From an uncultured Bacteroidales bacterium (GTDB taxonomy: Bacteria; Bacteroidota; Bacteroidia; Bacteroidales; VadinHA17): a stretch of DNA of 64,000 bases. The DNA is taken from positions 402,579 through 466,578 of the forward strand of contig CAVSZL010000006.1 of the NCBI GenBank assembly GCA_963732435.1. The letters are read 5' to 3'. The first letter of the stretch is position 1. Each line of letters begins with the position of its first letter. The notes beneath the pieces are model-generated. The model searched no databases and was not told the origin of the DNA. It saw nothing but the letters and a program-made list of their open reading frames with translations. Position numbers and translations under genes: made by a program. Of the stretch, positions 22,271 to 25,270 are shown in pieces.

Positions 22271-25270
22271 CTAAAACCTGAAATATATAAATGGCTGTAT
22301 ATCTGTTGTCCTCATCTGGTAAAGCAGAACAGCCACTACCATTAAAACAATCATCTGACCCACCAGTGGTATTCTGATAAAATATCCCCTGTAGACTTCT
22401 TTGGTTACCTCGGGAAGAAGATGGATCATATACCCTGCAATTATCAATAAGAATACATTTCCATATACTGGCAATACTGTACTGTATGATCCGGGCGAAA
22501 AATTTTCTATAATCTGGGTAATCATGATTCTGACACTATCCACATCCGGTGCCCTGAAAAAAATCCAGCAGAAGGTCACAAAATGGAATGTAATAAAAAC
22601 TCCTAAGATCCGGCTTATGCGATTTGAAAAAAGTTTTACGCCAATAACTGATCGCCAGGTACGACTAATAACCAGGGCTATACCATGAAACGCACCCCAA
22701 ATTATAAACCTGAGAGAAGCTCCATGCCAAAGACCACCCAGCAACATGGTGATTATAAGATTGATATAGGCTCTGATCTTCCCTTTTCTGTTTCCGCCTA
22801 ATGGTATATACAGATAATCCTTTAACCAGCGTGAAAGGGAAATATGCCATCGCTTCCAGAAATCTTCAATGCTGGATGCCTTATAGGGTGAATTAAAGTT
22901 AACCGGTAAGCGGAATCCAAGTATCAATGCTATCCCGATAGCAATATCAGTGTAACCTGAAAAATCACAATAGATCTGAAGACCATATCCATAAACCGCC
23001 ATCAGGTTTTCAAAACCTGAATAGAAGGCAGGAGTATCGAAGACCCTGTCAATAAAATTAACAGCAATAAAATCAGATATTATGATTTTTTTAATCAACC
23101 CTTTGGATATTAAAAATAATGCATGACTAAACTCTCTCTTCCCAAGGTGAAATTCGCTATATAGCTGGGGAATGAATTCAGAAGCTCTTACGATTGGGCC
23201 GGCAACCAGTTGGGGAAAAAAGGAAACATAAAATCCGAAATCCAGGATATTCCTTACCGGCTCCATTTTCCTCCTGTAAACATCTATTGTATAGCTTAAA
23301 GACTGAAATGTAAAAAATGATATTCCGACAGGGAGGATAATAGTACTTATTCCAAACGAAGTCCCGAGAACAGAATTTGAAAATTGTGCAAAATAATCGT
23401 ACACAATAAAATCTGTTCCCAGCAGATTATTTAAAGATTCCACAATGAAAGCCGAATATTTAAAATAAGCAAGTATTCCCAGGTTTGAGAATAGACTAAA
23501 AACAATCATAATTCTTCTGAAAAACCTGGACTTTGAATTATAGATCAGTAAACCGCATGTATAATCAATTACCGAGACTAAAATCAGAAGAAATAAGAAA
23601 AGGCCCCCGGATTTATAATAAAAAAAGAGGCTGAAAATGAAGAGATAAACATTTCGCAGATATAGCTTCCTGTATACTAGGCTATATCCTGCAAGAACGA
23701 TCAGGAAGAATATCCAGAAAGCAGGTACTGAAAAGATCAATGGCTTTAATGGATCATAGCTGAATATTAATGAGATAAGTATCCTGAGGAAGCTCTCATT
23801 TTCCGGAGTTTCAACAGGACTGATTGAATTATCCTGCTGTTTAAGGATAACACTATCCTGTCTGTAACTGACCATTGTCAAACAAACAGAGTCTGATTCT
23901 TCATAATTAAACAAAGCATCTGTAAGTATCCTTGAAAGAGTATCAGCCCCCTGATTGGTAAAATGGACATAATCTTTCTGTGCTAAAGGAGGTAACTTTC
24001 CCGCCCATTTTATGATCGACGACTCTCCTCCCATTGCATTATACGAATCCCAGAATATTGCACCAGCCTCATCCGATGCACTCTTCTGTGCCTCAATTAT
24101 TGAGGAGATATTGCTGTACGAGACTATACTGTCACCATTAGTATAAGCCATATCCGTAACACCAACCAGCAGAACAGGTGTAGATGGGGAGATCTCCTTC
24201 AACAATGAAAGTTGCCGTACCAGTCCTTTTCTGTAGTAAGAATAATCGGACCGGACATTCCTGACAATGTTTAGACCGTAATGCAGCACGAACAAGTCAG
24301 GAGAGAGTCTCCTGTAAGATTCAGCAAGATTCTCCCTGTCAACCATTGTAAACTCAAGACCTGCACTTCCTCGTTGCGGGATATTGTCAACTATAACACC
24401 TTTGCTGCTTTCAATACTGATCCCAAAAATATCCGGACTAACTCTTCCTTCAAACTCAATCAGAATCTGTTTTGCCCCCATTAACTTACAGGAAATCTCA
24501 TTTATTCCCTCGCCCCTCCTCAGAGTATCTGCAAATAACTTTTTTTCATCACCTCTGACTTCTACTTTAACAACACCCTCCCTGTTTTCATAAAAAATTC
24601 TCAGCAAATCATATTCTGATGAAGTGCTGTCAGCAAATTTAGAGGGCCTGATATTTACAGAAGCCTTAACAGGTGCAGGGGAGTTTTCTCCTTCTGGCAA
24701 ATATCTGCACAAGGTCATAAACGGACCAAAATCCCTGTGTGATATTTCGCCGCCAGTGTATGAAAGATAATTATATCTTTTCCAGTTTGAGGAAGACCTT
24801 ATCCATATCGACTTTGTATACATCACAGGCATAAGCGGGAGGAAAAGTCCTGGTCCGGTTCCTCCCCCCTGTTTTCTGAGAGTCGAACGTAAAAATGAAG
24901 TTACACGATCGCCTTCTATCTGAGAATCACCATAATACAGAATCCGGATTTGTTTATCCGAGTGTTGCATGGAATCAACCAGAACCCTCAGTGCATTATC
25001 AGTAACACTATCAGTAATAGTGTCTTTAACGACAGGGACAGAATCTGGTCTGATAAAAATCTTTTCAGGTAATGCAGCAATTGAATCAGCCGGATGAAAA
25101 TCATTTATCTCTTTAATATCATCGTTTAAGGGAAATAGCGCATTTATCAGACTTGAAGGGAAAAAGTCATTAATACTGGGAAAAAGTTGAGGAGCCGGAA
25201 AAATATAATGAAGACCTGTTAAACAGACCAGTAAGATCAGTAGCAGCCAAAACGACCTTAGGGGACGCAT
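22271..25270 (-). CDS. Fusion protein: N-terminal anchored SGNH/GDSL-like domain plus a C-terminal MBOAT membrane O-acyltransferase (AlgI/PatA/DltB-like)
   Basis: SGNH blocks '[11 protein letters not shown]' and 'DYVHFT'. MBOAT motifs '[27 protein letters not shown]' and 'GGLWHGAS'. 999 aa with many TM segments in the C-terminal half. Confidence 0.75.
   Translation of the reverse strand: [999 protein letters not shown]

Follow-up and report, generated by a model that had tools for sequence, protein, structure and literature searches.

A conserved SGNH-MBOAT fusion behind mltD in one family of Bacteroidales, a candidate single-chain peptidoglycan O-acetyltransferase with an Ape1-type domain

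In this study, we analysed a stretch of 64,000 nucleotides (the window) from an uncultured Bacteroidales bacterium of the GTDB lineage VadinHA17 (assembly GCA_963732435.1, contig CAVSZL010000006.1, positions 402,579 to 466,578). One gene of the window, P0001 (22271..25270, minus strand), encodes a single chain of 999 amino acids (aa) in which a membrane-anchored SGNH domain of the Ape1b type stands in front of an MBOAT domain. Judged from its sequence, this protein is probably a single-chain peptidoglycan O-acetyltransferase, whose Ape1b-type domain would take the acetyl group from Tyr996 close to the MBOAT's C-terminal end. An earlier note on this DNA had pointed out the fusion and proposed such a function. 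The fusion proved to be real and conserved, and far from isolated: within one GTDB family of Bacteroidales it is how the gene usually occurs, and none was seen outside that family in our sample.

The gene is a single unbroken frame from ATG to stop (999 aa plus the stop codon), both in the list of open reading frames (ORFs) and in the translation. Every motif named earlier was found in this translation, namely the block I stretch of 12 residues with Ser116, DYVHF with Asp433 and His436, a stretch of 23 residues with His809, and LWHGAS with His849. The protein begins with MRPLR and a transmembrane anchor at residues 3-23 (25202..25264; this and all following parts lie on the minus strand), which is supported by hydropathy and is a helix with a predicted local distance difference test score (pLDDT) above 90 in both structure models. 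It is followed by a low-confidence linker, residues 24-87 (25010..25201), with pLDDT below 50 over residues 50-87. The SGNH domain comes in two parts, placed by a HMMER alignment to Ape1 chain 4k3u and by conservation. The first part, residues 88-140 (24851..25009), carries block I (G114-D115-S116), and the second, residues 291-457 (23900..24400), carries G301/G304 (block II), G332-x-N334 (block III) and D433-x-x-H436 (block V). Between them lies a beta-sandwich insert at about residues 141-290 (24401..24850; boundaries approximate), which is all-beta in the models and is the counterpart of the CBM35 domain of Ape1. A flexible tether, residues 458-490 (23801..23899; pLDDT below 50 over 458-487), leads to the MBOAT domain, and both its length and its sequence vary among 22 fused proteins. 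The MBOAT domain, residues 491-993 (22292..23800), was delimited by the Pfam match, the matches to DltB and conservation, and includes His809 (in FWKRWH) and His849. Where the MBOAT is a separate gene, its start Met falls near residues 491-497 of the fusion in the alignment. Finally, the translation ends with the hexapeptide FIYFRF, residues 994-999 (22274..22291), which contains Tyr996. The model of the full-length protein had a pLDDT of 85.7 and a predicted template modelling score of 0.68, with residues 50-87 and 458-487 disordered.

The N-terminal half is modelled as a membrane-anchored two-domain fold of the Ape1 type, that is, an SGNH domain with a CBM35-like insert. By sequence it matched the Ape1 of Neisseria meningitidis (chain 4k3u) with an E value of 1.9e-13, and its GDS, GxN and DxxH blocks aligned with the same blocks of Ape1, at only 16-21% identity. 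The AlphaFold2 model of this half, based on 102 sequences, had a pLDDT of 83.5, rising above 90 over residues 100-450. Foldseek aligned it to the Ape1 structures with E values of about 1e-22 to 1e-23 and template modelling (TM) scores of 0.80-0.82, and the next fold reached E 3e-8 and TM 0.35. Furthermore, VIA-align superposed residues 82-460 on N. meningitidis Ape1 (4k3u) with Z 37.8 over 345 residues (root-mean-square deviation 2.9 Å) and on Campylobacter jejuni Ape1 (8gkd, 8gld) with Z 33.0. All non-Ape1 chains stayed at Z values of 17.4 or below, with alignments limited to the SGNH core (about 180 residues); PatB structures reached 15.1-16.2 over this core alone (187 residues). A beta-sandwich inserted after block I, together with its domain limits, is described for C. 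jejuni Ape1 in a preprint (bioRxiv 10.1101/2021.09.23.461501).

The catalytic residues of this half, whose intactness the earlier note had left to structure prediction, are intact and invariant. G114, D115 and S116 are invariant in the 102 sequences and were kept in all 22 fused proteins, and blocks I, II, III and V are invariant or at least 90% conserved in the 102 sequences. In addition, S116, G301, G304, N334, D433 and H436 were retained in 22/22 fused and 51/51 split relatives. Residue 435 (V, I or T), just before the catalytic His, was also tried as a marker to tell transferases from esterases and was rejected; both Ape1 and PatB have V or I at this position.

The C-terminal half is, by its motifs and matches, a PatA-type MBOAT. 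Residues 674-891 matched the Pfam family MBOAT (PF03062) with E 2e-32 and 113.2 bits against a cut-off of 27. Its best solved relatives by sequence are the DltB chains 6bug and 8jem (E 3e-26), and Foldseek also placed DltB first (E 1e-11, TM 0.74), with HHAT and PORCN next. The NCBIfam DltB profile scored 160 bits on the fusion, under its cut-off of 375. In an alignment of 66 MBOATs (22 fused and 44 separate), His809, His849, F994, I995, Y996 and F999 were retained in all 66. FWKRWH matches the motif F-W-R/N-R-W-H given for the Pat/AlgI class by Weadge et al. (PMC1199599), and FIYFRF fits FXYXXF, which was defined as an acyl-shuttle motif by Anderson, Schultz et al. 2025 (PMC12148441). The second paper describes the role of the conserved MBOAT His and the helices alpha15-17 of PatA; the fusion has similar helices ahead of its hexapeptide, at residues 937-950, 954-966 (amphipathic) and 969-986. 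It also reports auto-acetylation of PatA on the Tyr of FXYXXF, and the use of an acetyl-Tyr peptide as donor by PatB. Meanwhile, the membrane domain of OatA-type enzymes, AT3 (PF01757), had no match in P0001 in the Pfam search. A sequence search with the MBOAT half returned 1067 matches at E <= 1e-3, and the best 120 all came from the same fused family.

The topology was assessed by hydropathy and charge counts together with published statements on PatA and DltB. The helix of residues 3-23 is hydrophobic (mean hydropathy 1.69), and two Arg lie on its N-side. In the MBOAT half, positive charges are concentrated in the loops YRK (533-535), SKS/RFFRR (579-586) and RRKMEPVRN (666-674), which are the loops that an MBOAT topology with the N-terminus outside puts in the cytoplasm. 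PatA is predicted to have its N-terminus outside (PMC12148441), DltB has its N-terminal helix at the outer face (PMC11035591), and PatB carries a membrane anchor and a linker ahead of its SGNH domain (PMC12148441). An outward N-terminus of the MBOAT, suggested earlier by comparison with DltB, agrees with these statements and with the loop charges. A consistent layout would therefore be an anchor with its N-terminus inside, a periplasmic SGNH domain, an MBOAT with its N-terminus outside, and a periplasmic C-terminal shuttle peptide.

To describe the distribution of the fusion, public collections of 5.8 billion proteins were searched, and 7774 matches at E <= 1e-3 were obtained among 8000 scored candidates. 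The best 120 homologues are 950-1002 aa long and 65-88% identical, with a query coverage of 96-100%. Their source names say 'MBOAT', 'AlgI' or 'DltB' only, and one JGI name adds 'lysophospholipase L1-like esterase'. We also scanned GTDB species genomes with the alignment of the N-terminal domain. Among 604 related stretches, the best 80 were kept as loci, and the ORFs called in them were matched to the proteins of the window. In 14 of the 80 loci (L006-L018 and L037), one frame of 977-1016 aa runs over both halves. These fused proteins are 50-88% identical to that of the window, which argues that the fusion has been maintained over a long divergence. In one further locus (L072:6001-8983), the fused region falls into three ORFs (372, 210 and 368 aa), for which a pseudogene and sequencing errors in the assembly are both conceivable.

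In the GTDB family of the window, 180 of the 201 sampled genomes matched the N-terminal domain at E <= 1e-10. Among the 150 matches listed, 131 lie in open frames of at least 900 aa; several of the 19 shorter frames lie at the ends of contigs, and two, of about 501-504 aa, seem to be genuinely split. In the order-wide sample (301 genomes at least 90% complete, from 137 families), 175 genomes matched. Among the 150 order-wide matches listed, a stop-free frame of about 1000 aa was present only in the window's genome and one congener. The others comprise one 1020-aa frame with an internal TAA, one of 839 aa, and the rest of 407-591 aa. The first of these belongs to another Bacteroidales family (G232:C8:21147-22301), where SGNH1 lies in a 1020-aa 'frame' broken by a single TAA. 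SGNH1 and the MBOAT may there be adjacent in the same frame, one stop codon short of a second independent fusion.

Other Bacteroidota have separate genes. The split loci, which by record title belong to Bacteroidales, Flavobacteriales, Cytophagales, Chitinophagaceae, Saprospiraceae and others, show the order mltD-like gene, SGNH1 (about 470-520 aa), usually SGNH2 (about 400-450 aa), and a separate MBOAT (500-567 aa), and in many Bacteroidales this cluster stands behind parA-parB-DUF5683. By a profile search for SGNH2, 62 loci could be classed as 14 fused, 39 split with SGNH2 and 9 split without SGNH2 (48 split in all); the remaining 18 of the 80 are cut by contig ends or broken. In one locus (L027:7128-8485), SGNH1 and the MBOAT are separated by a gap of about 1.36 kb, and the ORF between them, which had no match to SGNH1 or to the profile of SGNH2, is perhaps another gene inserted at this point. 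In a maximum-likelihood tree built from the MBOAT domain (65 rows, quick search, LG+G4, rooted on the two other MBOATs of the window's genome), the 15 fused rows formed one clade with SH-aLRT support of 99, so that one change suffices.

The arrangement of the split loci is the O-acetylpeptidoglycan (OAP) cluster of Bacteroides and Porphyromonas, for which Weadge, Pfeffer and Clarke 2005 (PMC1199599) gave the order ape1b-ape1c-pat. In the 62 classed loci, SGNH1 sits upstream of pat as in that cluster. Furthermore, the ape1b-type SGNH1 occurs wherever the MBOAT does, and 9 of the split loci as well as every fused locus lack SGNH2. Searches for SGNH2 in the window's genome (92% complete) and in 121 genomes of its family did not find it; in the family, the best match had E 6e-14. 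The matches listed in that search lie in frames of the size of the SGNH1 gene in 60 of 61 cases, with one weak match (3e-6) in a 931-aa frame. The loss of SGNH2 seems older than the fusion. The two paralogues also differ in form: SGNH2 is closer to Ape1 (E 1e-17 in one stretch) and has signal-peptide-like N-termini, whereas SGNH1 combines a membrane anchor with a long linker, which is also how PatB is described.

The fusion gene stands in a conserved neighbourhood. On the same strand, the order is parA (28466..29242), parB (27548..28429), DUF5683 (26846..27487), mltD (25285..26829) and the fusion, where the first three were identified from their ORFs and Pfam matches. The mltD stop ends at 25285 and the fusion starts at 25270, a gap of 14 nucleotides. 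The earlier note had described the same string and spacing without the strand, which is minus. The MltD-like ORF (26829..25285) has an SLT domain and two LysM stretches by Pfam, and it matched the NCBIfam MltD profile NF008050 with E 2e-55, under the equivalog cut-off. The order parA-parB-DUF5683-mltD was found in 13 of the 14 fused loci, and the 14th ends at a contig end. A DUF5683 membrane protein also lies between parB and mltD in most Bacteroidales loci with enough upstream sequence. Thus, parAB-DUF5683-mltD-OAP is a conserved string in Bacteroidales, and the linkage to mltD is conserved across Bacteroidota.

The MltD-like protein of the window keeps the motifs IES (with the catalytic Glu143), GLWQF and AAYNCG, and so does the copy in each of the 14 fused loci. 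Across 66 aligned MltD-like ORFs, that of the window among them, 46 retain the catalytic Glu and 20 lack it. The latter, which lie upstream of SGNH1 in L026, L030, L033, L036, L039, L041-L043, L045, L047, L048, L050, L051, L056, L069, L073, L077, L078, L081 and L084, are mostly weakly matching copies in loci of the Flavobacteriales type, and most also do not have GLWQF/AYNCG. The copy of the window is of the intact kind and is predicted to be active. Directly 3' of the fusion stop, a consensus scan found a terminator-like hairpin with a T tail (22228..22247, minus strand). The number of terminator-like sites in the region was not above that in shuffles and only the position of this hairpin is suggestive, and it is the probable end of the operon. 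The mltD gene and the fusion are presumably co-transcribed.

Based on these results, we propose the following model. The fusion would have arisen once, in one GTDB family of Bacteroidales, from the order mltD-ape1b-ape1c-pat after the loss of the soluble ape1c. The N-terminal helix would anchor the protein with its N-terminus inside, and the periplasmic Ape1b-type SGNH domain with its CBM35-like insert would be joined to the periplasmic N-terminus of the MBOAT by a flexible tether of about 35 residues. The MBOAT, using His849, would move acetyl from cytoplasmic acetyl-CoA to Tyr996 of FIYFRF at the periplasmic face. The tethered SGNH domain would then take the acetyl group on Ser116 (triad Ser116-His436-Asp433, oxyanion hole Gly304/Asn334) and pass it to the C6 hydroxyl of N-acetylmuramic acid (MurNAc). 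The gene would be co-transcribed with an active lytic transglycosylase of the MltD type, whose action is blocked by MurNAc O-acetylation.

Several observations argue for peptidoglycan as the substrate. In its fold, the SGNH half corresponds to Ape1, a peptidoglycan O-acetylesterase. The split orthologues make up the OAP cluster and come from species with measured O-acetylated peptidoglycan, with O-acetylation of 69% in B. fragilis and 27% in B. thetaiotaomicron (PMC1199599, Table 1). The synteny with mltD is conserved, and this MltD has an intact catalytic Glu. Meanwhile, a transferase role of the Ape1b domain is suggested by the fusion, by gene retention and by the membrane anchor. In analogy to OatA and other AT3-SGNH enzymes, the fusion makes SGNH1 the likely acceptor. 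SGNH1 is also retained wherever the MBOAT is, and SGNH2 is dispensable. In addition, the window's genome yielded no further Ape1-like or PatB-like gene, and PatB/DUF459 had no match above the cut-off there.

It should be noted that a number of points weigh against a transferase. The fused SGNH domain is Ape1b, a member of the esterase-type Ape1 family and not of the PatB family, and its active site is of the esterase type. The PatB/DUF459 profile (PF04311) gave 12.9 bits on this half (E 0.071), under its cut-off of 27.2. Lipase_GDSL_2 matched residues 315-442 (E 7.6e-5, 23.7-25.5 bits), also under its cut-off (32.9), with the block I part split from the rest by the insert. The block II glycines G301 and G304 were retained in 73/73 SGNH1 sequences. 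In PatB and OatA, the block II Gly is replaced (Ser/Asn, type I turn), which was proposed as a mark of transferases (PMC12148441, section 7). Furthermore, ape1b of Zymomonas mobilis adjoins ape2, later assigned to the PatB type (Weadge et al., PMC1199599); Ape1b may coexist there with a PatB-type transferase and be an esterase. No dedicated esterase was recognised in the genomes of the window's family, which leaves the question of how MltD-type enzymes cope with acetylated glycan. Thus, the SGNH blocks and the link to peptidoglycan put forward earlier stand, the latter through the Ape1 fold and the OAP cluster, and membership of the PatB-type transferase family does not.

In a first alternative, the machine and the substrate are the same, and the Ape1b domain on its tether serves chiefly as an esterase or acts in both directions. 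It would then clear or recycle O-acetyl groups beside the MBOAT and take the place of both PatB and Ape1; or else transfer to peptidoglycan needs an unrecognised partner. Both fold and sequence agree with characterised esterases, the domain keeps the canonical Gly-Asn oxyanion hole, unlike PatB, and ape1b is paired with ape2 in Z. mobilis. A separate esterase paralogue was not found in the family, although an intact MltD is co-encoded. However, an MBOAT with the acyl-shuttle motif at its end requires an SGNH acceptor, and no other Ape1-like or PatB-like candidate was found in the 92%-complete genome. A pure esterase fused to an acetyl donor would run a futile cycle, and it is SGNH2, not SGNH1, that is closer to Ape1 and has the soluble form with a signal peptide. 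We consider this alternative unlikely as a whole. A bolder reading, equally doubtful, is that one polypeptide replaces the three-protein OAP system, with the Ape1b domain acting as an O-acetyltransferase when charged by acetyl-Tyr and as a de-O-acetylase when uncharged.

Another glycan of the envelope, such as capsule, lipopolysaccharide (LPS) or exopolysaccharide, could also be the target, as in AlgI/AlgJ/AlgX or WssH, and the proximity of mltD would then be incidental. MBOAT-SGNH pairs do modify several polymers (PMC12148441), and public pipelines call the relatives AlgI or DltB. However, the SGNH half has no close relatives in structure other than Ape1, a peptidoglycan esterase, the gene lies in a housekeeping parAB-DUF5683-mltD string conserved across Bacteroidota, and species with the split cluster have O-acetylated peptidoglycan (PMC1199599). 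In addition, two other MBOATs of the genome stand with polysaccharide genes of the WecG, AT3 and FkbH types, each beside its own small SGNH-like partner. We judge this reading somewhat less probable still than the esterase one. The two MBOAT genes in question, of 478 and 486 aa, are on contigs C6 and C13 (L004:6370-8765 and L005:6773-9188). Behind each comes an ORF of about 315 aa whose SGNH/DltD-like matches are only faint, and genes of the WecG, AT3, FkbH and DRL types surround them; the two are probably O-acyl modules for capsule or LPS. Finally, the idea that the long ORF arose through an error of assembly or sequencing, or is a pseudogene in decay joining two genes, as the three ORFs of L072 might suggest, is refuted by unbroken frames in 14 independent loci and in 131 of the 150 listed family matches, by the catalytic residues kept in 22/22 fused sequences, and by fused proteins that share only 50-88% identity with that of the window.

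The single-chain peptidoglycan O-acetyltransferase that we favour can be compared with several known systems. With PatA/PatB/Ape1 of Neisseria and Campylobacter (PMC12148441), it shares the MBOAT His, the C-terminal FXYXXF Tyr, an anchored periplasmic SGNH domain with Ser-His-Asp, and a functional link to lytic transglycosylases. However, the MBOAT and the SGNH domain are here one polypeptide with the SGNH domain N-terminal, this domain folds like Ape1, with a CBM35-like insert and the canonical block II Gly, and not like PatB, and a separate esterase gene was not found. The ape1b-ape1c-pat cluster has orthologous genes in the same order, with SGNH1 corresponding to ape1b upstream of pat. It consists of three separate genes, which were read as esterases and one transferase, whereas here ape1c is missing and ape1b continues in frame into pat. 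The available part of PMC1199599 makes no mention of such a fusion.

Similarly, the OatA-type AT3-SGNH fusions of Gram-positive bacteria combine in a single chain a membrane domain that translocates acyl groups and an extracytoplasmic SGNH transferase, with an acetyl-Tyr intermediate. They differ in that the membrane domain is AT3 and not MBOAT, the SGNH domain is C-terminal, and the block II turn of OatA is non-canonical. Ape1 itself (4k3u, 8gkd, 8gld) shares the two-domain fold with the beta-sandwich after block I, and its Ser, Gly, Asn, Asp and His align with those of the fusion; it is a soluble periplasmic hydrolase with a signal peptide, whereas the domain described here is membrane-anchored and tethered to an acetyl donor. 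The DltB/DltX/DltD system shares the MBOAT fold (DltB being the best solved relative), the FXYXXF motif and an SGNH-like acceptor with an N-terminal anchor. However, it uses a carrier protein, has the motif on the separate microprotein DltX, and acts on lipoteichoic acid. The OAP cluster and the PatA/PatB mechanism are known already. MBOAT systems have been described as using a separate SGNH protein and AT3 systems as fused (PMC12148441), and we found no description of a natural MBOAT-SGNH fusion in the main texts of the open-access literature searched. Within that literature, the single-chain SGNH-MBOAT form, the loss of the SGNH2 paralogue and the implied transferase role of an Ape1-fold domain are not described.

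On the other side of the fusion gene, a HydF-type [FeFe]-hydrogenase maturation GTPase (20929-22197, plus strand) converges on it, and a lyase of the aspartase/fumarase class lies at 19461-20897.

A natural and widely conserved SGNH-MBOAT fusion is independent genomic evidence that the two partners act as one unit. The transfer of acetyl from PatA to full-length PatB was not reconstituted, owing to non-specific labelling (PMC12148441), and the fusion offers a single-chain object for cryo-electron microscopy and for reconstitution of the acyl shuttle. It also raises the question of how a family with no recognisable esterase reconciles O-acetylation with lytic transglycosylase activity. If the domain worked in both directions, a single enzyme co-expressed with MltD would both set and clear O-acetylation in a whole Bacteroidales family. 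Ape1b, which has long been taken for an esterase, would then be the true transferase throughout Bacteroidota, and the non-canonical block II turn would not be required for transfer. The assignment of roles to Ape1b and Ape1c has been unsettled since 2005. For Bacteroidota, including gut Bacteroides with heavily O-acetylated walls, the fusion points to Ape1b as the likely transferase and Ape1c as the likely esterase.

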